NCBI GenBank assembly: GCA_963796685.1
Contig: CAWCMR010000025.1
Coordinates: 2,059,623 to 2,123,622, forward strand
Source: an uncultured delta proteobacterium
Lineage (GTDB): Bacteria > Myxococcota_A > Polyangia > Fen-1088
Direction of reading: 5' to 3'
Length of the DNA stretch: 64,000 bases
Part shown: positions 8,595 to 53,917 of the stretch, piece by piece
Layout: every line of letters starts with the position of its first letter
Numbering within the stretch: position 1 is the first letter of the stretch
The notes under the pieces: model-generated
The model's database searches: none
What the model saw: the letters and a program-made list of their open reading frames with translations, nothing else
Told to the model about the DNA's origin: nothing
Translations under genes and position numbers: made by a program

Positions 8595-9894
8595 TTACCT
8601 CAAAACGTGCAACGTCGCCAGAGTCTCTTGGGCGGCGGCCACAAAAGAATCGATTTCCGCATCCGTGTGCGCCAGCGAAATGAAGGCAGCTTCGAGCTGG
8701 GCGGGCGGCAAGTAGAAGCCGCGGTCCAGCATGCCGTGGAAGAAGTCCGCATAAACCTTGGTGTTCGCCCTCTTCGCGTCTGCGAAATCCGCAACCGGGC
8801 CTGGGAAAAAGAAGAGGGTGAAGGCTGACCCAACGCGCTGAACACACGCGTCGACGCTGGACTTTGAGATTGCGTCATGAATTCCTGCTTCAAGCCTGGC
8901 GCCCATGGTTTCGAGGCGCTCGTAGCTCTTGGCATTCAGCTGGCTCAGCATGGCAAGGCCCGCGGCCATGGCCAAGGGATTGCCCGAGAGGGTTCCGGCC
9001 TGGTACACCGGGCCGTCGGGAGCCACCATCTTCATGATGTCGGCCCGCCCGCCGTATGCGCCGAGAGGCAGGCCGCCACCGATGATCTTGCCCAGGCAGG
9101 TCAGGTCCGGGCGAACCGAATACAGTCTCTGCGCGCCCCCGGGCCCTGCCCGAAAGCCGGAGATGACTTCGTCGAAGATGAGCAGGGCGCCGGCTTCGTC
9201 ACACAGGCGGCGCAAGGCCTGCAGGTAGCCGGCCTTGGGCGGCACCAGGCCCATGTTGCCCGGAATCGGCTCCACGATGAGCGCCGCCACCTGGCCCGGA
9301 TTGGCGGCAAAGGCCGCGGCCATGGCCCGCTCGTCGTTGAAGGGCACGATGACGGTATCGGCCACCGCCGCCGCCGTCACTCCCGCCGAGCCGGGAATGC
9401 CCAGGGTCGCGGCACCCGAGCCGGCAGCGGCCAGCAGCATGTCCGCGTGTCCGTGGTAGCCGCCATCGATCTTGATGAGCTTGTTGCGCCCGGTGAAGCC
9501 GCGCGCCACCCGTAGGGCCGACATGGTGGCCTCGGTCCCCGAAGACACGAACCGCATGCGCTCCATCGAAGGGAAGAGGGCGCGGATGGCCTCGCCGAGC
9601 TCGAATCTCGCGCTCCGTCGAGGCCCCGAAGGTCGTGCCTTGCCCGGCGGCCTCGGTGATGGCGGCCACGACCCGCGGGTTGGCGTGCCCGAGGATGAGC
9701 GGCCCCCACGAACCGAGAAAATCGGTGTAGCGATTCCCGTCGGCGTCCCACACGAAGGCGCCCTCGCCGCGCGCGAGGAACACCGGCGTTCCCCCCACCG
9801 CCTTGAACGCCCGCACCGGTGAATTCACGCCGCCCGGGAAGAGCCCGCAGGCGCGTTCGAATAGTTGCCGCGATTTCTCGTTCTGCCTGCCCAT
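8595..9894 (-). CDS. hemL: Glutamate-1-semialdehyde 2,1-aminomutase; +1 frameshift near 9605
   Basis: [11 protein letters not shown] in ORF 9199-9894; [34 protein letters not shown] in ORF 8595-9566. Confidence 0.93.
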
Positions 9895-17500: not shown

Positions 17501-20183
17501 GACCCCGACCGCGGTGGCGCCTGCCGCCGTGGACTTCGGCTCGGTGGCTCAGAACAACGTCGGTGTGTGGACCAGCTTCACCGTTACCAATCCAGCGACG
17601 GGTACGGAAACCGGCCCCCTCGCCTACTCGCTTGGTAGCGAAGATCCATTCGAGCTGTACACGCCCGCGGCTGCGGGTGTCACCGCGTACCCGGCTGGCT
17701 TCTGTGGCGATCCCTCCGGCGGTGCTCAATCCACCTCGTTGGTCCCTGGCGCAACCTGCATCATTCAGGTCCGCTTTATTCCGACGCTAGTTGGTGCGGC
17801 GAGTGGCTCACTGACCGTGGGTAGCCTTGCCGCTATTCCGCTCAAGGGCATGGGGACGGCCCAGCTGGTCCTCTCCGGAAGCGCCATCACGACGGTCAAC
17901 AGCGTCCAGACCCTGGCCTTCGGCAATGTTGGCGTGGGTGCGACAGGCACGCAAACCTTCACCGTCACCAACAATGGTGCAGCCACCTCGGCAGGCAGCG
18001 TCGCGTTGACGCTATCCAACAATGCTGCCGACCCGGCGGTCTTTGCCGCAGGTCTCCCGCCCCACTTCAGTCCAGGAACCACCGGTTGTGGGTCGACTCT
18101 GGCCGGCGGTCAGAGCTGCCAGATGACCCTCATCTACACGGGCGTTGCCCTGGAGACTGTGTCCCAACAGATCGTCATCTCGAATTCAACTCCGCTCGGC
18201 ACTACGAATCCCGTCAACGCGTCGCTGGTTCTCACGGCTAAGACCGTGAATCCGGCACTGCTTGCGCTGTCCGGCTTCGACTATTACACGCCGCCTACGC
18301 CAGCTGATGGATCGGGCCAGGCGATCGACCTAGGGGCAACGCCGATTGGTACGTCCACCGGTGTGCTTACGCTGGTATTCGTCAACAACGGAGCCGTCGC
18401 TGCTACAGGGCTCCAGGCCTCATGGCCGTTCACCAATCCTCCCGGGAACACCGACTTCTCGATTGCGGCAGAAAACCAGGGGACCTGCTTCGGGATCGGT
18501 GGAACGCTCGCACCGCAGCAGACCTGCACCGTCAACGTTCGTTGCACGCCGTCGGCTCTAGGTGACCGCGTTGCCGAGCTTCAACTGAACGGCCTGGCTG
18601 CGCCCGGCCCCGTCGTCAAGCTTCACGCGACTGGGATTGCGCCCACGAACGTGTACGCCTTCGCGCAAGGCGGAAGCAACTCGTTCTACAACTTCGTCGG
18701 AGCCACAACCGCTCTGCCCGGTGCGGGGGCCAAGGCCTACTTCACGTTGGTCAATGGCACGACGAGCCCGATTCCCCTCGGAACCAGCACCACTGACTTC
18801 ACGGGTGGCTCGGGCACCACCCTCAGTGTCATCGGGGTCGCGCTTCCAACCACCGAGCCTTCTACGGACTTCGCCCTGTCGAAGCCGACAGGCGTGGCAG
18901 GCATCGCAAATCCGTGCGGGACGACGCTCAGTTCAGGCGGTCAATGCACCTTCGCGGTGACCTTCACGCCCACGTGGAACGATACCGACCATCTCTACCG
19001 ATGGGCCAACGTGACCACGTCCGTAGGGAGCGCCACTGATATCGTTGGGGTCTTTGGTCGGGTGCAGATGCCCGCCATGCTGCAGCTCAGCGCCGCGCCT
19101 TCGGTGGGGCAGGTAACTGTCACTGCGGCGACCACTAGCGTGGCCGGCTCCGTCGACTTCGGTCAAATCCTGACCGGGCAACTCTCGTCCGAGGTCTTCA
19201 CCATCACCAACATCGGTGACGTGGCCACGGCCGGAAATGTGGGGTTGAAGATGATCGGCACGGGGTCGTATGCGGTCCTTGGCACCTCGACGTGCGGAAG
19301 CTCTCCGCTCGCTCCGGGCGCAGCCGCAGCCTGCACCGTGACCGTTAACTCCCAGCTCACGTCCAGCACCGGAACTCGGACGGGTCTGTCGGTCCAAGCG
19401 GTCGACCTCGGTGTCCCAACGGCCACCGGCGAGGAGAGCCTGCAGACCTTCGACCTACAGGCCGAGGTCGTGAACCAGGCAAACCTCACGCTCAATCCCA
19501 CTGGTACGACGTTTGCGACCAGCACCCCGGCGGGCTCGACGGATGCTGAGAGGGTCACGATTACTGTGGCGAATGGAGATCCGGCGAACGATGATGCGTC
19601 GAATCGACAGAACACCACGGCGCTCATCGTCACCCTGTCGGACTCGACGAACTTCGCGGTGGACAGCGCCAGCACCTGTCTGAATCCCTCGACGCAGACG
19701 TACAAGGCACTACCGCTCACCGCGAGCGGAGTCGATAGCGAGTCCTGCACGATCATTGTCAAGTTCACTCCGCAGGCCGCTGGAGCTAAGAGCACGACCG
19801 TGTCGGTAAGCGCGACGACGGGAGGCACGCCAACCCCAGTCTCCCTGACGGGAACGGGATTGAGCACGCTGACCTCGGATGCGAGTGCCAACCCGGCCGC
19901 GCCCACGACCTTCACCATCACCCACGGTGGTAGCGGGACGACGGGTCTTCTCACAGAGTCGCTGACGGGAACCAACGCCTCCGCCTTCGTCATCAGCGAC
20001 GATCAATGCTACGGCACTTCGCTCACAGGCAATGGAGACACTTGCCAGGTTACGGTGACCTTCGTCGGCACCTGCAGCGCGACCACTGCCCAGACCGCCA
20101 CCCTCAAGGTGACGGATGGAACGGCGAACAGCACCGTGAGCATTCCGATGTCGGTTGGCGGCGCGACCGCTGGCTGCCCGTAG
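14541..20183 (+). CDS. Very large surface lipoprotein with tandem Cys-paired Ig-like (ASH / choice-of-anchor D-like) repeats
   Basis: GGAGG RBS at 14529; lipobox TVVG-C; repeated 'DFG...FTVTN.G...TC...L.PG.TC.I.V.F.P...A.LTV' units; Thr/Ala/Gly/Val-rich. Confidence 0.85.
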   Translation: MTCSKNFGRLLQASCLGLIGMLTVVGCGGSENPAHNDAAPSDGGGSKVPNLTASTGTVSVGTVDVGKISTAATVVITNNGTGAGVVTVTPSGVTASGCAGNLAVNAPCTLSITATPSVAGPITGSVSVVIAGGNTLTIGVTGNAVPPGNFTLDKTAIDLGPLAVGQVAQATVTVTAGSALTGLTTTVQGADVKPDAASTCTATLGAGLTCTVVVDFSMATAGTPIGDAILVSQGGVTKTVPITATVLALAKLSASPLSGALVAAPGATSAPLSINVGNTGGMTTGQIVVAISGANAADFKIVSDTCSIVNLAGGATCAVAVVYTPAATATLAEAATLTITDKGAAGSVATVALSGTPQLPSNLKITGGPDLGQVAPGGSGSEVVFTVTNTSTTASGAVTATVGSSSVTISSNTCATKATLIQNDTCTIGLKLTPPSTALASSISTLLTVSSASGDTTNVMVTGTILSGVVLSATPASVSFGSVPANQQSAVKTVTITNGGATATSILSATLSGTGAAQVVITGNTCTGVLAPAATCTVSVQYSPTDTTGVSGQITVTDGAATVSVPMVGTGLAPSVFTLVTDTSAFSAFGPTVVGYTSSPQSVHLQLVSSATTDSGAITLTIGGANAADYATVPANTNCTLLQAGQNCDITVAFTPGAVGASAATLTVTGAKGGTYTFDLKGTGLALVQLVPLGQTATTIATPYTGLDFGQQPNATLGNVFAYRVVVRGATNPAATSTVPSIAMAPGTPPDFTYVTGTTVGDATTWAPAPTNPCNPGPTLTLPADASSSPWIVGAKTSTNPSIAPNAPVSTLNTDEQSTVLYWTCDFYVQFSPTSGKSATPKTATLTATASAGGTATLTLTGTASGPLTITPSVTFDPTPLGTSSADVQAGNRTLTVVNKAVNSISQGPLSVALGGANAADFAIVSDGCSGQPPLVPSGGHCDIVVAFTPSVAAVETATLTVTASNTGETAQATLKGTGSASSAITVTPTAVAPAAVDFGSVAQNNVGVWTSFTVTNPATGTETGPLAYSLGSEDPFELYTPAAAGVTAYPAGFCGDPSGGAQSTSLVPGATCIIQVRFIPTLVGAASGSLTVGSLAAIPLKGMGTAQLVLSGSAITTVNSVQTLAFGNVGVGATGTQTFTVTNNGAATSAGSVALTLSNNAADPAVFAAGLPPHFSPGTTGCGSTLAGGQSCQMTLIYTGVALETVSQQIVISNSTPLGTTNPVNASLVLTAKTVNPALLALSGFDYYTPPTPADGSGQAIDLGATPIGTSTGVLTLVFVNNGAVAATGLQASWPFTNPPGNTDFSIAAENQGTCFGIGGTLAPQQTCTVNVRCTPSALGDRVAELQLNGLAAPGPVVKLHATGIAPTNVYAFAQGGSNSFYNFVGATTALPGAGAKAYFTLVNGTTSPIPLGTSTTDFTGGSGTTLSVIGVALPTTEPSTDFALSKPTGVAGIANPCGTTLSSGGQCTFAVTFTPTWNDTDHLYRWANVTTSVGSATDIVGVFGRVQMPAMLQLSAAPSVGQVTVTAATTSVAGSVDFGQILTGQLSSEVFTITNIGDVATAGNVGLKMIGTGSYAVLGTSTCGSSPLAPGAAAACTVTVNSQLTSSTGTRTGLSVQAVDLGVPTATGEESLQTFDLQAEVVNQANLTLNPTGTTFATSTPAGSTDAERVTITVANGDPANDDASNRQNTTALIVTLSDSTNFAVDSASTCLNPSTQTYKALPLTASGVDSESCTIIVKFTPQAAGAKSTTVSVSATTGGTPTPVSLTGTGLSTLTSDASANPAAPTTFTITHGGSGTTGLLTESLTGTNASAFVISDDQCYGTSLTGNGDTCQVTVTFVGTCSATTAQTATLKVTDGTANSTVSIPMSVGGATAGCP

Positions 20184-20214
20184 TCGCTAGTCGCTAGACC
20201 TAGCATCCAAAGTG

Positions 20215-20249
20215 AAACCCCGGGGCCTCGGCTCCGGGGTTTTTCTTTT
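20215..20249 (+). terminator. Rho-independent terminator
   Basis: AAACCCCGGGGC-CTCG-GCTCCGGGGTTT stem followed by TTCTTTT. Confidence 0.85.
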
Positions 20250-20336
20250 GGTGCGCCTAGGATGACCGTCGTCTTGGGGGTGGAAATTCCCCCGGAAGGA
20301 GACCATCCCAAACGAAGCCGCCGCGCCGCGCGCAGT

Positions 20337-20399
20337 GGAGGTGCCAGAGACTATTGGTCGCTGGGGAGGTGCGCAGTGGAGGTGCCAGAGACCTATTGG
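20337..20399 (+). repeat. Two copies of the GGAGGTGCCAGAGAC(C)TATTGG motif
   Basis: Copies at 20337-20357 and 20378-20399, each preceded by GCGCAGT; same motif at 24333-24410 and 25652-25673. Confidence 0.8.
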
Positions 20400-20487
20400 C
20401 GCGAGGCGTCTACATCTATGGACGGCCTAGACTAGTGCTGAGCGACAATTACATCTCCCCACGTGTGAATGTAGTTGACGTCCAGCA

Positions 20488-20623
20488 CGCGGCCAAGGTC
20501 TGCAGTCCCACCAGGTGCGCGGTGCAATCGAAGGCGGGAAGCACGAGCCCATCGCGAACCATCGCCAGTACCACCAGGGCGTTGCGTAAGTGGAAGGCCG
20601 CTTCGGCAAGGATAGAATTACAT
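20488..20623 (-). pseudogene. Middle fragment of a PIN-domain toxin gene
   Basis: CNSILAEAAFHLRNALVVLAMVRDGLVLPAFDCTAHLVGLQTLAA; joins in frame to the fragment at 24158-24332. Confidence 0.7.
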
Positions 20624-20687
20624 CCAAAAACCCCATCCGAGGGTACTTCTTCGTCCCTAAACCTCGACCGGAAATGCCACGGAAATA

Positions 20688-20759
20688 CCCAGGGTACTAC
20701 CCTTCTCTCGCAACTTTCTGCTTCCGTTTCCGAGAAGCTATGGATGACACTCGCTCGTC
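20688..20759 (+). repeat. ~70-bp direct repeat (upstream region plus first codons of a RAYT-like transposase); partner at 25690-25757
   Basis: CGCAACTTTCTGC..CCGTTTCCGA.AAGCTATG.ATGACACTC.CTCGTC; the core has only 4 mismatches in ~51 nt between copies. Confidence 0.8.
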
Positions 20760-21095
20760 GGCTCGGTACACGCCGGCGCTGGGGCGTGCAGCTATTCGGC
20801 AGCGACGGCGAAGCAACCTGATCTGCTTCCACTCGTTCGAGCGCCTTCTCGCCTGCCGCGCGGTGGGCGGGCTGGTGAATGTAACGCGAGGATGCTCGAG
20901 GACTTTCGGATGCCGGGCACATCTGGCTGTCGAGCAAACCTAGGAAGGAACCCCCGCGCGGATCGCTGCTTGCAGACGAGCGCTCGTCGGGGTCTTCGAG
21001 GGAGGAGGTGTAGGCGTGGTCGACGCCGTACGTGGCAATTCGACTTTCCGCTGCATGCTAGCAACGACATCATATTTACGGTAAATATGGTGGCT

Positions 21096-22253
21096 ATGTA
21101 TACACGGACGCTAGGGCTCCCAGAAAGCTCGTTCTTCCTCTTCGGTCCGCGCGGGACCGGGAAGACGACCTGGTTGCGGCAGCAACTCGGGGCCGCTCGC
21201 CGGTACGACCTCTTGCTTGAACGGGAGCATCTGCGACTGTTGCGTGACCAGGAGGTGTTTCACCAGGAGGTCGAGGCGCTAAAGTCAGGGTCTTGGGTAG
21301 TCGTCGACGAGGTCCAGCGTATGCCGGCCCTACTCGACGAGGTCCAGGACATCATCAGTCGGCATGGCAAGCATATACGCTTCGCACTGACTGGTTCAAG
21401 TGCGCGGAAGCTGAAGCGGGGACAGGCAAATCTACTGGCGGCCCGAGTGATCAATCGGCGCTTCTTCCCCTTGACTGCGTCGGAAATGGGCGACGAGTTT
21501 AGCATCGACGAGGTTCTTCAATTCGGAACCCTGCCCGCGGTAGCAGCCGAAACGGAGGCAAGGGCGAAGGTCGACCTGCTCGACGCGTACGTGGAAAACT
21601 ATATCGGGCAGGAGATCCGCGCCGAGGCCGCGGCCAAGCGACTCGATTCCTTCACGCGCTTCATGGTCATCGCCGCATTGGCGAATGCTCAGGTCACCAA
21701 CGTGGCAGCGATTGCGCGCGATGCGGCAGTGGCAAGACCCACGGTCAACGGTTACTTCGACATTCTGGTGGATACGCTGATCGGCACTTGGCTGCCGGCT
21801 TGGCGTCCACGCGCCAAGGTCAAGGAGGTGGCTCACCCGAAGTTCTTCTTCTTCGACAGCGGCGTTGCGCGCGCCATGGCGAGCCGACTGCGCGAGCCCT
21901 TGGAAAGCGCCGAGAAGGGCCACCTCTTCGAAACCTACATCTTGCATGAGCTTCGTGCCCGGATGAACCAAGCCGGTACCGGCGGCGAATTCGGCTACTG
22001 GCGCACGCCTTCAGGAACGGAGATCGATTTTGTCTGGACCCGTGGTGGTCGCTCGGTCGGTATCGAGGTCAAGAGCAGCAACCGGTGGAAGTCGGAGTAC
22101 TCGCGTGCGCTTGCCGAGCTTTTCGGCGAAGGCGCTCTGAGCTCGGCATTCGGCGTCTATCTGGGCGAGCACGAGATCAAGGATCGCGGTATCCGCGTGC
22201 TGCCACTCGCAGCATTTCTGCAAGCGCTAGCGGCGGGCGAGGTGATCGGCTGA
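21096..22253 (+). CDS. AAA_14 ATPase with C-terminal DUF4143 / PD-(D/E)xK-like domain
   Basis: GPRGTGKT Walker A, VDEVQR Walker B, TGSSARKL, KFFFFDSG, EIDFV..GIEVK. Confidence 0.9.
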   Translation: MYTRTLGLPESSFFLFGPRGTGKTTWLRQQLGAARRYDLLLEREHLRLLRDQEVFHQEVEALKSGSWVVVDEVQRMPALLDEVQDIISRHGKHIRFALTGSSARKLKRGQANLLAARVINRRFFPLTASEMGDEFSIDEVLQFGTLPAVAAETEARAKVDLLDAYVENYIGQEIRAEAAAKRLDSFTRFMVIAALANAQVTNVAAIARDAAVARPTVNGYFDILVDTLIGTWLPAWRPRAKVKEVAHPKFFFFDSGVARAMASRLREPLESAEKGHLFETYILHELRARMNQAGTGGEFGYWRTPSGTEIDFVWTRGGRSVGIEVKSSNRWKSEYSRALAELFGEGALSSAFGVYLGEHEIKDRGIRVLPLAAFLQALAAGEVIG

Positions 22254-22543
22254 CCGGGAGGTAGACTTCCAAGCCCGCAAGCGGGCATTGGCCGGCTCTT
22301 GAATCAACGTGCCGTGGCGCGCTCAGAAAACGAGCCCTTCAGGTGTCACCAGGACCCAGGCCCGTGCAACCCACCCACCCACGACTACCCAGTGTGGGGA
22401 TTTGCGATCACGCTAATAGCCGCGGTTCCAGAGGAGTCCTCGCGTGGGCAAGGATAGAATTATGGCGCTCCTGGCCCCGAGCTGCCTACTGGATTGCTCG
22501 TACCTATATTGCATTAACTTAGCACTAGAGATATCTTACTGCC

Positions 22544-23179
22544 GTGAGATTTGATGCGCTTCTGGCGCTGGTTGCTGACGAACCTGTGTTCGCTTCCGCC
22601 CTTCTGCTGGCCGGGGACGTGTCAGCTGCGCAGGTGCGTCTGCAGCTGTCGCGCTGGGTGAAAGCTGGCCGGTTGCTTCGACTCCGCCGCGGGCTCTATG
22701 CATTGGCGCCGACGTGGCGGAAGGTGGAGCCGCACCCGTTCCTTGTGGCGAACCGGCTCCAGCGAGGATCCTACGTGAGCCTGCAGTCGGCCCTCGCTTT
22801 TTACGGGGTCATTCCCGAGCATGTGCCGGTGGTGACCAGCGTCGGGCAGGGGCGCCCAGAAACGCTACACAATCCTCTGGGTGGATTTCAGTTCAACCAC
22901 CTCACCGGGACGCTCTTCCTCGGCTATTCAAGGATGGAGGTTGCCGCCCGACAGTTCGCCTTCGTGGCCTCGCCGGAGAAGGCCCTGCTTGATCTCGTTT
23001 ACCTCACCCCAGGCGCAGATTCCCAGGACTACCTCCGAGAGCTTCGCCTGCAGAGCTCGGAGGCGATGGACGTGTCGACGCTGGACGAGCTTGCGCGGCG
23101 AAGCGGCAAAGCCAAACTGGTCAGGGCAGCCCGACTCGTCGAGAGCCTATTCTCGGTGGCGGAGGGAGACTCACTATGA
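22544..23179 (+). CDS. Type IV TA antitoxin, AbiEi-like
   Basis: LSRWVKAGRLLRLRRGLY, SYVSLQSALAFYG.IPE, ASPEKALLD motifs. Confidence 0.85.
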   Translation: MRFDALLALVADEPVFASALLLAGDVSAAQVRLQLSRWVKAGRLLRLRRGLYALAPTWRKVEPHPFLVANRLQRGSYVSLQSALAFYGVIPEHVPVVTSVGQGRPETLHNPLGGFQFNHLTGTLFLGYSRMEVAARQFAFVASPEKALLDLVYLTPGADSQDYLRELRLQSSEAMDVSTLDELARRSGKAKLVRAARLVESLFSVAEGDSL

Positions 23180-23982
23180 AGGAGTATCTGCGGCAACTGA
23201 CCGCACAGGCGGACAACGACCTTGCCCGCGGGTGTTTGGCTCGTGAGTATCTTCAAGCGCGCGTCCTCGAGTCGTTGCAAGACGAAGGCGTGTTTTTGCG
23301 CTGGGCCTTCGTGGGCGGCACCGCGTTGCGATTCCTGTTCGCCATTCCGAGGTTCTCGGAGGATCTGGACTTTTCCGTACCCTCGCCGGGGGCCGACCCT
23401 GGCTTCAGGCCGATCTTGACCGTGCTCAAGCGGGTCTTCGAACGCGAAGGCTACCGGATCGAGGTCAAGGTCAGCGAACACAGGACGGTGGCCACGGCGT
23501 GGGTGAAGTTTCCCGGACTGCCGCATGAGCTTGGTCTGTCGCCACGTGCGACCCAGACCCTTTCCATCAAGGTCGAATTGGACAAGAACCCACCAGCGGG
23601 AGCGGGTATCGAAACCTCGGTCGTTCGCCGGCACGTGACCCTGCACCTCTGCCATCATGACAAGCCTTCGCTCCTGGCGGGAAAGCTCCACGCCATCCTG
23701 AACCGCCCCTGGACCAAGGGCCGCGATCTCTACGACCTCGTTTGGTATTTGGCGGATCGCACCTGGCCAGCGCCCAACCTGGACATGCTCAACTCCGCAT
23801 TGGCGCAGACCGCCTGGAAAGGCGCCGTCATGACGGCAACCAACTGGCGGGAAGAAATCCGCAAGCGGACGAACATGCTCGACTGGGAACACGCTCGCGC
23901 CGACGTGAGGCCATTCCTGGAGCGGGAACGCGACCTCGATCTGGTGACCAGGGAAGTCCTGAGCAAACTGTTGGGCAGCTAA
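23176..23982 (+). CDS. Type IV TA toxin, AbiEii nucleotidyltransferase
   Basis: FVGGTALR, RFSEDLDF, AGKLHA, KGRDLYDL motifs; ATGA overlap with the antitoxin. Confidence 0.88.
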   Translation: MKEYLRQLTAQADNDLARGCLAREYLQARVLESLQDEGVFLRWAFVGGTALRFLFAIPRFSEDLDFSVPSPGADPGFRPILTVLKRVFEREGYRIEVKVSEHRTVATAWVKFPGLPHELGLSPRATQTLSIKVELDKNPPAGAGIETSVVRRHVTLHLCHHDKPSLLAGKLHAILNRPWTKGRDLYDLVWYLADRTWPAPNLDMLNSALAQTAWKGAVMTATNWREEIRKRTNMLDWEHARADVRPFLERERDLDLVTREVLSKLLGS

Positions 23983-24157
23983 GGTCACAGCCGGTGGCGC
24001 GCCGGGCGCCCAGGCAGTTGTGCACGCGGGACGCACGGGACACCCACCACGGGACGGCCCTTCCTGGAAGTTTTCCTGCCCCCACAAGACGACGTTGCAA
24101 TCGCGCTCATAGAGTCTGCGCGCGCCTGGGCGCCACAGGTTCTCCCTGCCTTGCTTT

Positions 24158-24332
24158 TCAGCCAGTCGGTGGGCAGATGAGCGGAATCGCCTCACGCTTG
24201 TTCCGCCGGTAGATGCGGAAGTCCTTCCGATCGACGGTGATCACCGGCAGCTTGGGATGGAGCTCGCTCATGCGGATTAGACAAAGATCCGCAAAGTCGG
24301 GGTTGCGATCGGCGTAGCGCGCGGCCAAGGTC
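24158..24332 (-). pseudogene. C-terminal fragment of a PIN-domain toxin gene
   Basis: Manual translation: TLAARYADRNPDFADLCLIRMSELHPKLPVITVDRKDFRIYRRNKREAIPLICPPTG-stop; no start codon before an in-frame stop. Confidence 0.8.
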
Positions 24333-24453
24333 AGACCTATTGGCTAGCCCGCGGGGGAGGTGCCAGAGACCTGGGAGAGCGAGCCCTGAGGTGGTGCCAG
24401 AGACCGATTGCCCGAGGAGTAGGCGAAGGCCTGCCGGACATCTCTGGACACCT
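24333..24453 (+). repeat. Cluster of GGTGCCAGAGACC motifs (one half copy, two full copies, one degenerate inverted copy)
   Basis: AGACCTATTGG 24333-24343; GGAGGTGCCAGAGACCT 24356-24372; GGTGCCAGAGACCGATTG 24393-24410; TCTCTGGACACCT 24441-24453. Confidence 0.75.
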
Positions 24454-24514
24454 ACTGTCCCGACGATTCAGAATGGCCCACCCCGCGCCTTTCGAACCCA
24501 CCTCCATGGTCCGT

Positions 24515-24970
24515 CTACTGGAGGAGACGCCGATCAAAGACGAAGTCGGTGGGTGGTCGAAGGTGAATCTCAGAAAAGTCGGGGTGTTTAGGATTGATCA
24601 GAAAATTCACCTCATCAGGAACGATTGCACTCGGCACCGCAAGGATAACTGAATCGCCTGCGTTGACCCAGTCATCGCCAAGGCGCTGCAGAGACAGCGG
24701 CGGTGGTTCGTGTTGCCAGTCCTTCGGGAGCTGCTGGGCAGGAAAGGTTCTCATCAACGCTTCATCGAAGTCGAAGGCGAACAACTTGTAGGGAGCCGTC
24801 GGCGCGATGTGAACGCGAACCTCGAGCACAGCAAGAGATTGGTGTTCGCTGGAATAGATTATCGGTACTCCGACGGAGTTCCATCGCCCGCCGTACCGCC
24901 TCGCCCCTTCACCGTCGAAAGCCGTCTTCTCTTGAGGTGCGGGCACCAGGCGCCAACCGGTACGTATCAA
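24515..24970 (-). CDS. RES-domain toxin (NAD+ phosphorylase family)
   Basis: AFDGEGARRYGGRWNS.G, LAVLE, VPSAIVP.E.N.LINP.HPDF. Confidence 0.92.
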   Translation of the reverse strand: MIRTGWRLVPAPQEKTAFDGEGARRYGGRWNSVGVPIIYSSEHQSLAVLEVRVHIAPTAPYKLFAFDFDEALMRTFPAQQLPKDWQHEPPPLSLQRLGDDWVNAGDSVILAVPSAIVPDEVNFLINPKHPDFSEIHLRPPTDFVFDRRLLQ

Positions 24971-25578
24971 GTATAGACTCCGTACTCGATTCTGCCCAAA
25001 AGGTTCTCAACCTCGCGCGCACCAACTTCGCTTTTTGCATAGTCGAGGGGCACGGCACCCGCGAGACCGAGTTGGGGAGAGTTGAGCCATTTGTTTGCGT
25101 CGTCCTTGCTTCCGAGGACCTTGATCGCCTTGCTGAGCAGCAAGGCGAAGCGAACAACACGATCTGAAACCAAGGGGGTAAGATTGGACCCCGTGGTCTT
25201 GCGACGGTGGAACGTCGTCTTGGACAGGCCGACGAGGGGGAGAAGCCTTTCCGATGAGACGTCGAGACTGTCCTGGAGAACGGTCAATTCGGACTCTGGT
25301 AGGCCAGCTTCGGTGGCTTCGACTTGTAGAGAGATGGGGACGTCATGGGTTGGACCGCGTCCCATCGCAGTGTCTAGATAGAATTGGACTACGCCTTGGC
25401 GAAGCTTGACGTGGACTGAGACCTTGCGACGGCTGGGCGTCGCTGCTTTCTTGGCAAGCCGGTGGGCTTCCCTGGTGGACGCACCGAGAAAGCCACACCG
25501 GGTGTCCGTCGGAGTTTTCTTGGGAGACGCCCGAAGTGGAGCTTTCTTGGCACGCGCCGCTGTCGAGGTGGTTTTCAT
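24967..25578 (-). CDS. Xre/MbcA/ParS antitoxin (DUF2384)
   Basis: HTH region, then WL.SPQLGLAGAVPLDYA.SEVGAREVENLLGRIEYGV; overlaps the RES gene. Confidence 0.9.
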   Translation of the reverse strand: MKTTSTAARAKKAPLRASPKKTPTDTRCGFLGASTREAHRLAKKAATPSRRKVSVHVKLRQGVVQFYLDTAMGRGPTHDVPISLQVEATEAGLPESELTVLQDSLDVSSERLLPLVGLSKTTFHRRKTTGSNLTPLVSDRVVRFALLLSKAIKVLGSKDDANKWLNSPQLGLAGAVPLDYAKSEVGAREVENLLGRIEYGVYT

Positions 25579-25651
25579 TTGACACTAATGATAGTTGCAT
25601 TTGGTACGTCTGGCAAGCGTCGGATATTCGAGATTGTGGTTCAACTCCGGA

Positions 25652-25673
25652 GGAGGTGCCAGAGACCTATTGG
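25652..25673 (+). repeat. GGAGGTGCCAGAGACCTATTGG motif
   Basis: Identical to 20378-20399. Confidence 0.8.
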
Positions 25674-25741
25674 TTAGCTGACGACAAAGCCCAGGGTACT
25701 TTTCCGCGCAACTTTCTGCTGCCGTTTCCGAAAAGCTATGC

Positions 25742-25865
25742 ATGACACTCCCTCGTCAGGTCGCGTCCGGTCGTGTCTACATGGTCATCCGCCGCTGCTC
25801 CGAGCCGCGCTCTTTCTTGCGCCCCGATGACTACAACAAAAGCCCCTACGGCTGCCCGGATCCCT
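25742..25865 (+). pseudogene. 5' remnant of a RAYT/IS200-like (Y1 HUH) transposase
   Basis: MTLPRQVASGRVYMVIRRCSEPRSFLRPDD resembles, from memory, N-termini of the 'PR..PG..Y.ITRRC..R.FLLRPD' Y1 transposases; it ends before any HUH motif. Confidence 0.6.
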
Positions 25866-27497
25866 CTACCGCGGAATGCTCTTTCCCGCGGAGGCTTCGA
25901 TCTTCCTGAAGTCCTCGATGTGGGCCAGGAAGACGCGCACGATGTCGGGGTCGAATTGGGTGCCGCTACAGCGTTCCATCTCGCCGCAGGCGATGACGTG
26001 GGGCAGGGCTTTGCGGTAGGCGCGGTCGGTGGTCATGGCGTCGTAGGCGTCGGCCACGGCGACGATGCGACCGATGGTGGGGATGCGCTCGGCTTGCAGG
26101 CCTTGCGGGTACCCCGAGCCGTCCCAGGCCTCGTGGTGGCAGTAGCAGCCTGGCACGATGTCGCGCATGAACGGGATGGGCTCTAGGATGCGGCGGCCCT
26201 TGGCCGGGTGCGAGCGGAACATGGCCAGCTCTTCGGGGGTCAGCTTGCCGGGCTTGTTGAGGCGGTCGTTGCGAATGCCGATCTTGCCCACGTCGTGCAG
26301 CAGACCGGACTTGACCACGGTTTCGATCTCCTCGCTCGGCAATCGCATGCCCACGGCGATGAGGCGCGCGTAGGTGGCCACGCGCTCGGAATGGCCGCGG
26401 GTGTAGCGGTCGGATTCTTCCAAGGCGTGGGCGAAGCCGATGATGGTCTGCTTGAAGTTCTCTTCCAGCGAAATGTTGGCGTGGACCAGGTCTTCGTTGG
26501 CGTCGACCAGGCTTTCGTACAGGCGCGCGTTCTCGATGGAGACCGCGGCGCGGCTGCCGAGCACGTACAGCATCTTGCGCTGGCCCTCGCTGAATTTGGC
26601 ACCCTTGGTGTAGCTGTAGGCGTTCAGCATGCCGATGGTGCGGCCCTTGAGCTTGAGCGGAATGGAACAGAAGCTCACCAGGCGCTTTTCGGGCGGGCCT
26701 GACAGAAAACGAAAGGCGCGCGACCCGTGCACCAGCAGGGGCTTGTCTTCTTGCAGAAGCGGCAGCACCTCGTTGAAGTTGAGCGGCGGCGCGGGCTCGC
26801 TGGCCTCGAGGCGAGGCGAGACCTTGCGCGCGTGCTCGATGAAGGCGCCGGGCAGGTCGCTGGCGTGGCGTGCGTCGCCCGGACGTTCCAGCATCAGGTT
26901 GACGATGTCGGCGTCCACCGCGTCCAGCACGGCGTCGAGCACGAGGTCGAGCACCTTCTCGACGGACAGCGAGGTCGCGATGGCCTCGCTGATCTTGTAG
27001 ATGGAAAGCGCGTCCTTGAGGCGGAGGTTCTCGTGTTGCAGGCGCTGGCGGTCGAGCCCGCGCTTGACGATGTGGATGACCTCCTCGACTTTGAAGGGCT
27101 TGAGGATGTAGTCGTACGCCCCGTGCTTCATGGCCTCGATGGCGGTCTCCACCGTGCCGAAGCCGGTCATGATCACCGTCAGCACCGGAATCCCGAGCTC
27201 GGTGATCTTCTCGATGAGATCGAGCCCGTTCATCTTGGGCATCTTGAGGTCGGAGATGACCAGGTTGTAGCTGCGCTTTTGCAGCTCCTCCAAGGCCTGC
27301 ACGCCGTCCTCGACGGTGCGCACCACGTAGCCTTCCAGGCCGAGAAAGTCCGACAGGATCTCGCGGATCACGCGCTCGTCGTCGACCACCAGGATGCGCG
27401 GGCTATCCGGGTTGAAGGTGTACTCGAGTCGCTGGCTTACGGCGCCAAGCTCGTCGGAGCTCTCCTCGGGTGTGCTGCCTAGAGGGGTCGTGGTCAT
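25866..27497 (-). CDS. Response regulator with REC, GAF and HD-GYP phosphodiesterase domains
   Basis: ILVVDDE, DLKMP, KPF; GAF region; GHSERV, LHDVGKIG, HHEAWDGSGYP, VADAYDAM. Confidence 0.93.
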   Translation of the reverse strand: MTTTPLGSTPEESSDELGAVSQRLEYTFNPDSPRILVVDDERVIREILSDFLGLEGYVVRTVEDGVQALEELQKRSYNLVISDLKMPKMNGLDLIEKITELGIPVLTVIMTGFGTVETAIEAMKHGAYDYILKPFKVEEVIHIVKRGLDRQRLQHENLRLKDALSIYKISEAIATSLSVEKVLDLVLDAVLDAVDADIVNLMLERPGDARHASDLPGAFIEHARKVSPRLEASEPAPPLNFNEVLPLLQEDKPLLVHGSRAFRFLSGPPEKRLVSFCSIPLKLKGRTIGMLNAYSYTKGAKFSEGQRKMLYVLGSRAAVSIENARLYESLVDANEDLVHANISLEENFKQTIIGFAHALEESDRYTRGHSERVATYARLIAVGMRLPSEEIETVVKSGLLHDVGKIGIRNDRLNKPGKLTPEELAMFRSHPAKGRRILEPIPFMRDIVPGCYCHHEAWDGSGYPQGLQAERIPTIGRIVAVADAYDAMTTDRAYRKALPHVIACGEMERCSGTQFDPDIVRVFLAHIEDFRKIEASAGKSIPR

Positions 27498-51793: not shown

Positions 51794-52450
51794 ATGGGAA
51801 CCCTGGGAGGGTTCCCAAACCCTCCCGCGCTCTGGCTTCGCCGGGCAAAGCCCGGCTACGCCAACGCGAGTTGATGGGAACCCTGGGAGGGTTCCCAAAC
51901 CCTCCCGCGCTCTGGCTTCGCCGGGCAAAGCCCGGCTACGCCAACGCGAGTTGATGGGAACCCTGGGAGGGTTCCCAAACCCTCCCGCGCTCTGGCTTCG
52001 CCGGGCAAAGCCCGGCTACGCCAACGCGAGTTGATGGGAACCCTGGGAGGGTTCCCAAACCCTCCCGCGCTCTGGCTTCGCCGGGCAAAGCCCGGCTACG
52101 CCAACGCGAGTTGATGGGAACCCTGGGAGGGTTCCCAAACCCTCCCGCGCTCTGGCTTCGCCGGGCAAAGCCCGGCTACGCCAACGCGAGTTGATGGGAA
52201 CCCTGGGAGGGTTCCCAAACCCTCCCGCGCTCTGGCTTCGCCGGGCAAAGCCCGGCTACGCCAACGCGAGTTGATGGGAACCCTGGGAGGGTTCCCAAAC
52301 CCTCCCGCGCTCTGGCTTCGCCGGGCAAAGCCCGGCTACGCCAACGCGAGTTGATGGGAACCCTGGGAGGGTTCCCAAACCCTCCCGCGCTCTGGCTTCG
52401 CCGGGCAAAGCCCGGCTACGCCAACGCGAGTTGATGGGAACCCTGGGAGG
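51794..52450. repeat. Perfect tandem array: 8 x 80 bp plus a 17-bp partial unit
   Basis: Unit ATGGGAACCCTGGGAGGGTTCCCAAACCCTCCCGCGCTCTGGCTTCGCCGGGCAAAGCCCGGCTACGCCAACGCGAGTTG. Confidence 0.95.
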
Positions 52451-53917
52451 CTCGGCACCTGCCTCCCACCCTGCCACCCCCGCGCTACGCGCGGCCTCGC
52501 CAAACCCTCCCGCGCTCTGGCGGAGCCGCGAGGGGCGCGTCCGAAGGACGCGAGGGGGAGGGCGTGGAGGTGTAGGTCCCGAAGCACCGACGAAGTCGGT
52601 GGGCAAAGCCCGGCTACGCCAACGCGAGTTGATGGGAACCCTGGGAGGGTTCCCAAACCCTCGCGCGCTCTGGCGGAGGCGCGAGGGGCGCGTCCGAAGG
52701 ACGCGAGGGGGAGGGCGTGGAGGTGTAGGTCCCGAAGCACCGACGAAGTCGGTGGGCAAAGCCCGGCTACGCCAACGCGAGTTGATGGGAACCCTGGGAG
52801 GCTCGGCACCTGCCTCCCACCCTGCCACCCCCGCGCTACGCGCGGCCTCGCCAAACCCTCGGCCCCTACCCGCCACCCTCCTCCCCGCTCGCTTCGCTCG
52901 GCCTCGCGCGCTCTGGCGGAGGCGCGAGGGGCGCGTCCGAAGGACGCGAGGGGGAGGGCGTGGAGGTGTAGGTCCCGAAGCACCGAGGAAGTCGGTGGCC
53001 AAAGCCCGGCTACGCCAACGCGAGTTGATGGGAACCCTGGGAGAGCGACAGCGCGGAAGGTACCAGAAAATGACACCTTTCCACGACGGACGCACGCATC
53101 CAATCGGAGCGATGACGGGTGGTCGTGGACGTAGACGGCTTACCGTGGCCGTGGCCGTGGCCGACGGCTATTACAACCGGCCACGACCGCGTCGCTTCAG
53201 GGGGGCCAACCCCTCGGCCCGCTACCCCCAACCCGCCACCCTCCTCCCCGCTCGCTTCGCTCGGCCTCGCGCGCTCTGGCGGAGGCGCGAGGGGCGCGTC
53301 CGAAGGACGCGAGGGGGAGGGCGTGGAGGTGTAGGTCCCGAAGCACCGAGGAAGTCGGTGGCCAAAGCCCGGCTACGCCAACGCGAGTTGATGGGAACCC
53401 TGGGAGAGCGACAGCGCGGAAGGTACCAGAAAATGACACCTTTCCACGACGGACGCACGCATCCAATCGGAGCGATGACGGGTGGTCGTGGACGTAGACG
53501 GCTTACCGTGGCCGTGGCCGTGGCCGACGGCTATTACAACCGGCCACGACCGCGTCGCTTCAGGGGGGCCAACCCCTCGGCCCGCTACCCCAACCCGCCA
53601 CCCTCCTCCCCGCTCGCTTCGCTCGGCCTCGCGCGCTCTGGCGGAGGCGCGAGGGGCGCGTCCGAAGGACGCGAGGGGGAGGGCGTGGAGGTGTAGGTCC
53701 CGAAGCACCGAGGAAGTCGGTGGCCAAAGCCCGGCTACGCCAACGCGAGTTGATGGGAACCCTGGGAGAGCGACAGCGCGGAAGGTACCAGAAAATGACA
53801 CCTTTCCACGACGGACGCACGCATCCAATCGGAGCGATGACGGGTGGTCGTGGACGTAGACGGCTTACCGTGGCCGTAGGCGTCCTCGCCGTCGTGGACG
53901 ACGGCTATTGCAACCGG
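52451..53917. repeat. Modular palindromic repeat region including ~3 x 362-363-bp units
   Basis: Units start at about 52868, 53231 and 53593; built from pieces of the 80-bp unit plus inserted hairpin modules. Confidence 0.9.

Follow-up and report, generated by a model that had tools for sequence, protein, structure and literature searches.

The stretch analyzed here (the window) comprises 64,000 nucleotides from an uncultured delta proteobacterium (assembly GCA_963796685.1, contig CAWCMR010000025.1, positions 2,059,623 to 2,123,622 of the forward strand). It holds an islet of toxin-antitoxin (TA) and defence genes in which two pieces of a PIN toxin gene could be located on the two sides of a block of three genes, encoding an AAA_14/DUF4143 ATPase, AbiEi and AbiEii. 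The order of the pieces is swapped in the window, with the middle piece of the gene to the left of the ATPase/AbiE block and the C-terminal piece to its right. A short direct repeat is found at the PIN ends, one copy in each piece. The positions of the pieces and of the repeat copies were as follows.

20488–20613, minus strand: middle piece of the PIN gene (ILAEAAFHL...LQTLAA), family residues about 41–82, assigned by profile and relatives
24158–24331, minus strand: C-terminal piece of the PIN gene (TLAARYADRN...ICPPTG), family residues 79–135 and the stop codon, assigned by profile and relatives
20484–20500 (13-mer at 20488–20500): left copy of the direct repeat (AGCA CGCGGCCAAGGTC), PIN codons T-L-A-A on the minus strand
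24316–24332 (13-mer at 24320–24332): right copy of the direct repeat (AGCG CGCGGCCAAGGTC), PIN codons T-L-A-A on the minus strand

A PIN profile built from 115 full-length relatives matched 24343 to 24161 (minus strand) at profile positions 79–134 (E 2.8e-36) and the open reading frame (ORF) containing 20623 to 20488 (minus strand) at positions 32–85 (E 3e-16), the strong part of the latter match being limited to about positions 41–82. The same profile, run against the six frames of 20200–25900, gave no further match beyond the two pieces. Both pieces belong by sequence homology to the PIN domain toxin family (PF01850, VapC-like), and neither short piece alone was matched by Pfam. Alignment with eight relatives placed the pieces side by side, at residues 41–82 and 79–135, with an overlap of four codons that consists of T-L-A-A only. 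A protein search with the C-terminal piece alone revealed 5,769 proteins at E ≤ 0.01 among 5,788 candidates; the best matches were proteins of 133–135 amino acids from a highly conserved family, many of them carrying the precomputed domain PF01850. The top match, P0001, shared 95% identity with this piece (54 of 57 residues over 79–135). P0001 had been retrieved with the C-terminal piece only, yet it was the nearest relative of the middle piece too (40 of 42 residues identical, against 36 of 42 for the runner-up and a median of 60% over 118 proteins), and it ranked first again in a separate search with the 162-amino-acid ORF that holds the middle piece.

Species-representative genomes were scanned with P0001, which yielded 427 confirmed relatives; all counts of loci given here refer to the best 80 of these 427. 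All 80 loci contained intact PIN genes with 131–135 matched residues, and the matches to the two window pieces were contiguous in 80/80, with an overlap of 5–8 nt. In the closest locus, L001 of a Myxococcales assembly, the window region 24167–24332 corresponds to L001 5967–5802 with 87% DNA identity, and the window region 20492–20610 corresponds to the adjoining L001 5810–5692 with 85% DNA identity. According to the original prediction, failure of the two peptides to align one after the other to a single PIN family would have spoken against it; they do align in this way (profile positions 32–85 and 79–134). Its further statements that the pieces lie in reversed order and that joining the repeats gives one continuous frame were borne out as well. 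Over residues 41–82 and 79–135 the pieces are about 95% identical to P0001, whose family includes L001 5360–5973. Since, in addition, neither piece contains a stop or a frameshift, the gene was probably broken up recently.

The 13-mer CGCGGCCAAGGTC has two exact copies only in the whole window, and with the upstream bases included the agreement of 20484–20500 with 24316–24332 is 16 of 17 (94%). Read on the minus strand in frame with the ORFs 20449..20937 and 24158..24328, both copies encode T-L-A-A, just as the original prediction had reported together with the AGC extension. The unit between the repeat copies is 3,832 bp long. As a background, the window has 142 direct-repeat pairs (spacing within 5 kb) with a length of 13 nt or more, 111 of which reach 14 nt or more, which leaves about 31 pairs of exactly 13 nt (142 minus 111), the counts of the longer repeat classes being inflated by a tandem array at 51.8–53.9 kb. 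This tandem-repeat region (51794–53877) consists of an 80-nt unit in 8.2 copies with 100% identity, followed by a 153-nt unit (2.0 copies), a 56-nt unit (1.9 copies) and a 363-nt unit (2.8 copies). The 13-mer by itself is not unusual for the window; the repeat gains its significance because it represents the same four PIN codons in both fragments of the gene, at the ends that face each other.

Such a background leaves room for two PIN paralogues that eroded independently, in which case the common 13 nt would be ordinary homology. Exact repeats of 13 nt are common in the window, and short or truncated relatives of the PIN family exist in databases. This origin is nevertheless judged distinctly unlikely: the same protein is nearest to both pieces at 95% each, the next best for the middle piece reaching 86%; the pieces meet with a four-codon overlap and neither runs past it; and the window has no other copy of the family of the split PIN. 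The two pieces are predicted to be remnants of a single antitoxin-PIN (VapBC-like) module, now dead.

A separate and apparently intact TA pair with overlapping genes lies at 1965–2225 and 2212–2592. Its 86-amino-acid ORF encodes a putative AbrB/SpoVT-type antitoxin, and its 126-amino-acid PIN-like product is about 30% identical to the split PIN.

The intact relatives are genes for 133–135 amino acids with an antitoxin gene upstream, whereas the window holds two permuted pieces from which both the N-terminus and the antitoxin are gone. The antitoxin gene stands directly upstream on the same strand in 80/80 PIN loci, and in L001 a 70-amino-acid antitoxin gene precedes the PIN gene and overlaps its start. 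The split PIN has no cognate antitoxin directly upstream, and no antitoxin match with E < 0.2 could be found in the window, the best chance match having an E value of 0.26. PIN residues 1–28 left no trace anywhere in the window. Residues 29–40 are at best vestigial, as a weak in-frame resemblance could be seen upstream of the middle piece, possibly extending to 20649, in which conserved positions are matched by E, S and C; the DNA similarity to L001 ends at 20610. The original prediction, too, had noted that the first 40 or so residues were not found. In PIN domains the acidic residue near the N-terminus has a catalytic role. The split PIN is not a complete domain, as its N-terminal strand is gone together with the first of the conserved acidic residues (IADTG in the relatives), and the joined pieces would give an open frame but no PIN domain. 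Joining of the repeats, or excision, would not restore a toxin, as residues 1 to about 28–40 would still be missing. The PIN pieces are without function at present, and the neighbouring defence and TA genes are expected to work independently of them.

The gene was also broken at about codon 41, at a microhomology-type join. This second junction lies at the N-side edge of the middle piece and coincides with one copy of a 16-nt repeat.

20605–20620: 16-nt repeat GGCAAGGATAGAATTA, left copy, at the N-side edge of the PIN middle piece
22447–22462: 16-nt repeat GGCAAGGATAGAATTA, right copy, 82 nt upstream of AbiEi

When extended, the repeat agrees in 20 of 22 positions over 20599–20620 and 22441–22462. 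The first 6–8 nt of the left copy are PIN codons (L-A) and the remainder is non-PIN sequence; this copy also abuts the left end of a remnant of a transposase-like gene, which begins within five bases of it. The two copies bracket 1,842 bp holding the ATPase gene, a geometry like that of the PIN repeat around its 3,832 bp. That the region 22362–22462 might be a degenerate duplicate of the middle piece was considered and rejected, since identity at offset 1842 was 28% against a null of 27%. This ungapped identity was equalled or bettered at 1,855 of 4,639 offsets, and there is no homology around the 16-nt repeat pair. The presence of a second junction at the N-side edge of the middle piece indicates that the locus was rearranged more than once. 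Furthermore, similar sequence is found at both PIN breakpoints, CGGCCAAGG at codons 79–82 and CGGCAAGG at codons 41–44, and the 16-mer copy on the AbiE side reads GGGCAAGG; a CGG(C)CAAGG-like sequence is common to it and to the PIN breakpoints.

Short relatives of the PIN family were surveyed as well. There were 147 proteins of 30–73 amino acids, and the best 120 of these comprised 41 N-terminal, 77 C-terminal and 2 internal pieces. The match of the 77 C-terminal pieces starts at residue 80 in 16, at residue 67 in 20 and at residue 77 in 8, counts that are confounded by the choice of start codons, by contig ends and by the limit of 30–73 amino acids and allow no conclusion on a hot spot at codons 79–82. 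Many of the short relatives are probably contig ends. Two of them, P0174 and P0196, have residues of about 1–19 joined directly to about 85–135, and these internal deletions end on similar ..DR.. sequence, which suggests that the PIN family decays by short-repeat deletions elsewhere too.

An assembly artefact was also considered, in which the chromosome would have been misjoined with, for instance, a small circular replicon or a collapsed repeat. The source is possibly a draft or metagenome assembly, and a class-III aminotransferase gene at 8595–9894 (minus strand), lying in two frames, is possibly a sequence error. The 13–17-nt repeat is shorter than the usual assembly k-mers, however, unique sequence lies at both joins, and a misjoined intact replicon would not explain the missing PIN N-terminus, so that an artefact is considered extremely improbable. 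The aminotransferase is itself divided between two ORFs that overlap in different frames (profile positions 9–64 and 86–371), owing either to an error in the sequence or to a frameshift in a pseudogene.

The islet extends over about 20246–25865, from a left neighbour that encodes a surface-protein-like product of 1,896 amino acids, followed by a strong terminator at 20214–20243, to the 3' end of the gene of an HD-GYP response regulator on the right (25866). Its G+C content is 0.56–0.63, compared to 0.63–0.66 in the flanks. The window is chromosomal, with glutamyl-tRNA synthetase, gyrase A, PrmC, type III pantothenate kinase, NadA and TrmD among its genes. The genes of the islet other than the PIN pieces could be assigned as follows.

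21093–22253, plus strand: AAA_14/DUF4143 ATPase (Pfam), PADLOC candidate defence family PDC-S01 (E 9e-56)
22544–23179, plus strand: AbiEi antitoxin/regulator (Pfam AbiEi_4, E 1.4e-5; PADLOC, E 3e-53)
23176–23982, plus strand: AbiEii nucleotidyltransferase toxin (Pfam, E 2.2e-25; PADLOC, E 2e-64)
24515–24970, minus strand: RES toxin, intact (Pfam, NCBIfam)
24967–25578, minus strand: Xre/ParS-type antitoxin, intact, upstream of RES (Pfam, NCBIfam)

The AbiEi and AbiEii genes overlap by 4 nt and form the adjacent pair that defines an AbiE system, and the RES-Xre pair was recognized by NCBIfam NF049844 (156 bits, cut-off 110) and NF049845 (103.5 bits, cut-off 90). Both pairs are intact and typical systems that border on the split gene without being part of it. 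Pfam and PADLOC agreed with the original prediction that the segment between the repeats carries the AAA_14/DUF4143 ATPase and AbiEi/AbiEii, and these are the only ORFs within 20488–24332. Islet DNA (20200–25900) found no match in the plasmid and phage collections, and the PIN protein matched plasmids only distantly (11 matches with less than 60% identity, all cyanobacterial). AbiEi, AbiEii, RES and Xre were each absent within 10 kb of the PIN relatives (0/80 loci), which indicates that the PIN is not a habitual partner of the cassette; the ATPase was found near a PIN relative in 1/80 loci, as a distant homologue with 29% identity.

There is no recombinase gene in 20488–24332 and no recombinase Pfam match among the islet ORFs. 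Outside the islet, no recombinase domain was detected among 69 ORFs of at least 200 amino acids, a set that does not include the ORFs of 150–199 amino acids and two giant ORFs. The window contains no tRNA, and the Rfam search of 19800–26300 gave no match at E ≤ 0.01, with one sub-threshold His_leader match (E 0.23). Nothing indicates site-specific recombination, and no active mobile system is evident.

These results bear on the possibility of an active mobile cassette without an integrase, with a crossover site inside its own PIN gene that excision would rebuild. Permuted halves around a short common core are the footprint of elements with an internal attachment site, and such an arrangement is described for the 'suicidal' integrases of SSV-type archaeal elements, whose own gene is split on integration (PMC7253208), and for the Myxococcus phage Mx8, which has its attP within int (PMC6070905). 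The likeness extends to the window, where the parts of one gene lie at the opposite ends of the segment around a short common core. The gene that is split in both cases is the integrase and the reaction is site-specific and reversible, whereas the split gene here is a toxin pseudogene and no recombinase is present. The segment encodes no recombinase, its share of the transposase-like gene being about 8 codons, and the joined halves give a continuous frame that lacks the first 28–40 residues and not an intact gene. The target of SSV/Mx8-type elements is usually a tRNA gene; the window, by contrast, has none. The right end of the segment, lying inside a repeated motif that could serve as a target, would suit an active cassette. 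The rebuilt gene would remain without residues 1 to about 28–40 and without its antitoxin, however, no recombinase gene lies in the segment, and neither AbiE nor the motif occurs in any of the 80 PIN loci. Moreover, the fused ORF of the middle piece was not reproduced in databases, where its 17 matches were all ordinary PINs (gene callers may not call such an ORF). An active cassette of this kind is highly improbable.

The original prediction had proposed a circular cassette integrated within its own PIN gene. The circular form is retained here, as a circular or tandem 3,832-bp intermediate; the PIN does not look like the cassette's own in view of the absence of AbiE from the PIN loci, and a site-specific crossover found no backing in the absence of a recombinase from the segment and of tRNA or Rfam elements in or near the islet. 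The statement that the window has no integrase agrees with the lack of recombinase matches and requires a footnote, as two 5' remnants of a transposase-like gene lie in the islet.

These remnants form a leader repeat, which is predicted to be the 5' end of a decayed gene resembling REP-associated tyrosine transposases (RAYT); the identification is a new result of the present follow-up.

20621–20765, plus strand: leader, left copy, consisting of the 5' untranslated region and about 8 codons of a RAYT-like (Y1/HUH) gene, decayed
25681–25849, plus strand: leader, right copy, with the first 33–36 codons of the RAYT-like gene (start 25742), stopping short of the end of the HD-GYP gene at 25866

The leader copies (20679–20765 and 25681–25763) are 89–92% identical. 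For the 55-amino-acid ORF at 25742, a search of 1.84 billion representatives gave 24 relatives (E ≤ 1e-3), which matched its first 29–51 residues, mostly at their own N-termini. The full-length relatives P0135, P0136 and P0121 were matched by NCBIfam NF047646 over positions 4–144 of 146, all below the curated cut-off (E 6e-10, 5e-7 and 4e-11, respectively), and P0121 was matched by Pfam Y1_Tnp, also below the cut-off (E 3.7e-4). Alignment of the transposase-like relatives revealed an SNH.H motif, and a PDB sequence search with P0135 gave no match. The conserved 5' untranslated region of the relatives could be recognized in the window at 25682–25741 and 20626–20739. In P0121 and P0122, a second copy of the N-terminal stretch of the gene occurs near the C-terminal end, which indicates that the transposase-like 5' end recurs in other genomes. 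The islet thus appears to be a decayed transposase-like locus into which TA and defence genes were shuffled.

The islet also contains a short motif of 22 nt, GGAGGTGCCAGAGACCTATTGG, in five copies, all on the plus strand (starts 20331, 20372, 24350, 24384 and 25646).

20331–20405, plus strand: motif array, two units of GGAGGTGCCAGAGACCTATTGG
24333–24348, plus strand: half motif (3' half) AGACCTATTGGCTAGC, 15 of 16 identical to 25663–25678, directly abutting the right PIN repeat
24350–24417, plus strand: motif array, two units after the half unit
25646–25679, plus strand: single motif unit, followed by the right leader copy

The half motif confirms what had been noted earlier, that the right repeat abuts half of such a unit. 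The 22-nt motif does not occur elsewhere in the window outside the islet, and it was not found in the loci of the PIN relatives (0/80). The motif arrays folded no better than shuffled sequences (z −0.65 to +0.46), without a hairpin signal. A palindromic REP or an attC-like site was rejected as the identity of the motif, as it folds like shuffles and is absent from 80/80 PIN loci. Peptides of the motif were also absent from the upstream read-through of the 24 transposase-like relatives (0/24). A sequence ACATCT.TGGAC..CCTA follows the left and the right arrays (20412–20429 and 24437–24454) with agreement in 16 of 18 positions, the best of the flank comparisons (p about 0.07), and the arrays may belong to a repeat of greater length.

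The islet resembles REP/RAYT loci in its two 5' remnants of a RAYT-like gene, one of which adjoins a short repeated motif. It differs from them in that the motif copies are one-stranded, without palindromic folding, so that the gene has no flanking palindromes, and in that only about 8 and about 33 codons of the gene are left in the window. Integron cassettes are small circles with TA or defence genes that are lined up between recombination sites; the islet resembles them in its gene blocks (ATPase and AbiE; RES and Xre) separated by a short repeat in one orientation and in the implied circular intermediate. The differences are the lack of an integrase Pfam match and of a hairpin signal in the motif arrays, dedicated attC models not having been run, and a left PIN crossover that does not lie at the repeated motif.

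The explanation favoured here, with moderate confidence, is a one-off scar of illegitimate recombination that passed through a circle or tandem intermediate in a scrambled TA/defence islet. The path from the middle piece toward the PIN N-terminus reaches the PIN stop by way of the ATPase and AbiE genes, which requires the 3,832-bp unit to have once been circular or tandem. A unit composed of the transposase-like left end, the ATPase gene, AbiEi/AbiEii and the PIN gene would first have given rise to a 3,832-bp circle or to a tandem duplication. The closure would have been an illegitimate, microhomology-type join at about PIN codon 41 (the GGCAAG.. junction), at which the PIN N-terminus and the antitoxin were lost. 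The circle or tandem unit may then have been opened at PIN codons 79–82 and joined into the repeat-rich intergenic islet, where its right end would cut one 22-nt motif unit between CCAG and AGACC. The 13–17 nt at both ends would be a short terminal redundancy of the inserted DNA and not an attachment core common with the chromosome. As this duplication would belong to the incoming DNA and not to the target, its source could be a staggered break that was filled in, or a copying process that ran slightly past one unit. The analysis shows directly that the pieces are consecutive and overlapping parts of one gene in permuted order, without N-terminus or antitoxin, that there is a second junction and that the ATPase, AbiE and RES/Xre genes are intact; the circular or tandem form, the sequence of steps and the way of joining are inferred.

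Several points weigh against a one-off scar of this kind. Only the locus of this genome is in view, with neither an empty site nor a donor arrangement seen, and there is no demonstrated mechanism for a 13–17-nt duplication of incoming DNA. The insertion flanks (20400–20500, 20613–20678 and 23983–24157) showed no significant relation to the other flanks (p 0.07–0.99). The left flank is weakly like the missing 5' half of the motif, at about 8 of 10 positions with one gap by eye, which makes an insertion into a motif unit only suggestive. The likeness of the breakpoints in CGG(C)CAAGG could point to a sequence-directed process outside this explanation.

In addition, the same end product would result from a multi-step local rearrangement without a free circle. 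This could be a tandem duplication of the stretch from the left end to AbiE and PIN(41–135) followed by two deletions, or microhomology-mediated template switching, in which PIN 41–82 would have been copied to the left of the block and the original deleted. The junctions are microhomology-like, with the first 6–8 nt of the 16-nt repeat common with PIN; the several repeat families of the islet could drive unequal exchange; and the transposase-like 5' part is duplicated in P0121 and P0122 too. Such a history requires two independent end points to fall within 13–17 nt in a 400-nt gene, however, which by a rough estimate that was not computed has an a priori chance of about 5%. It is considered an unlikely alternative that still deserves weight.

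The breakpoint likeness could also be taken further, to a repeated sequence-directed process that moves TA/defence cassettes and leaves terminal redundancies of one unit plus 13–22 nt, perhaps by rolling-circle copying or with a RAYT-like HUH enzyme that acts in trans on circles of single-stranded DNA. The 3,832-bp unit with the PIN repeat and the 1,842-bp ATPase unit with the 16-nt repeat would be two nested examples. Both breakpoints lie on a CGG(C)CAAGG-like sequence, one of them at the left end of the transposase-like gene. We regard such a process as very unlikely, and the one-off scar remains the favoured explanation.

As the PIN toxin gene is dead, its division has no functional consequence for the cell. 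The leader and motif repeats belong to a decayed RAYT-like locus, which may act as a hot spot of recombination. Passage through a circular or tandem form, if true, bears on the shuffling of defence islets. If the scar is as it seems, the locus would represent a clean natural example of a defence block, here the PDC-S01 ATPase with AbiE, that was captured without a dedicated integrase.

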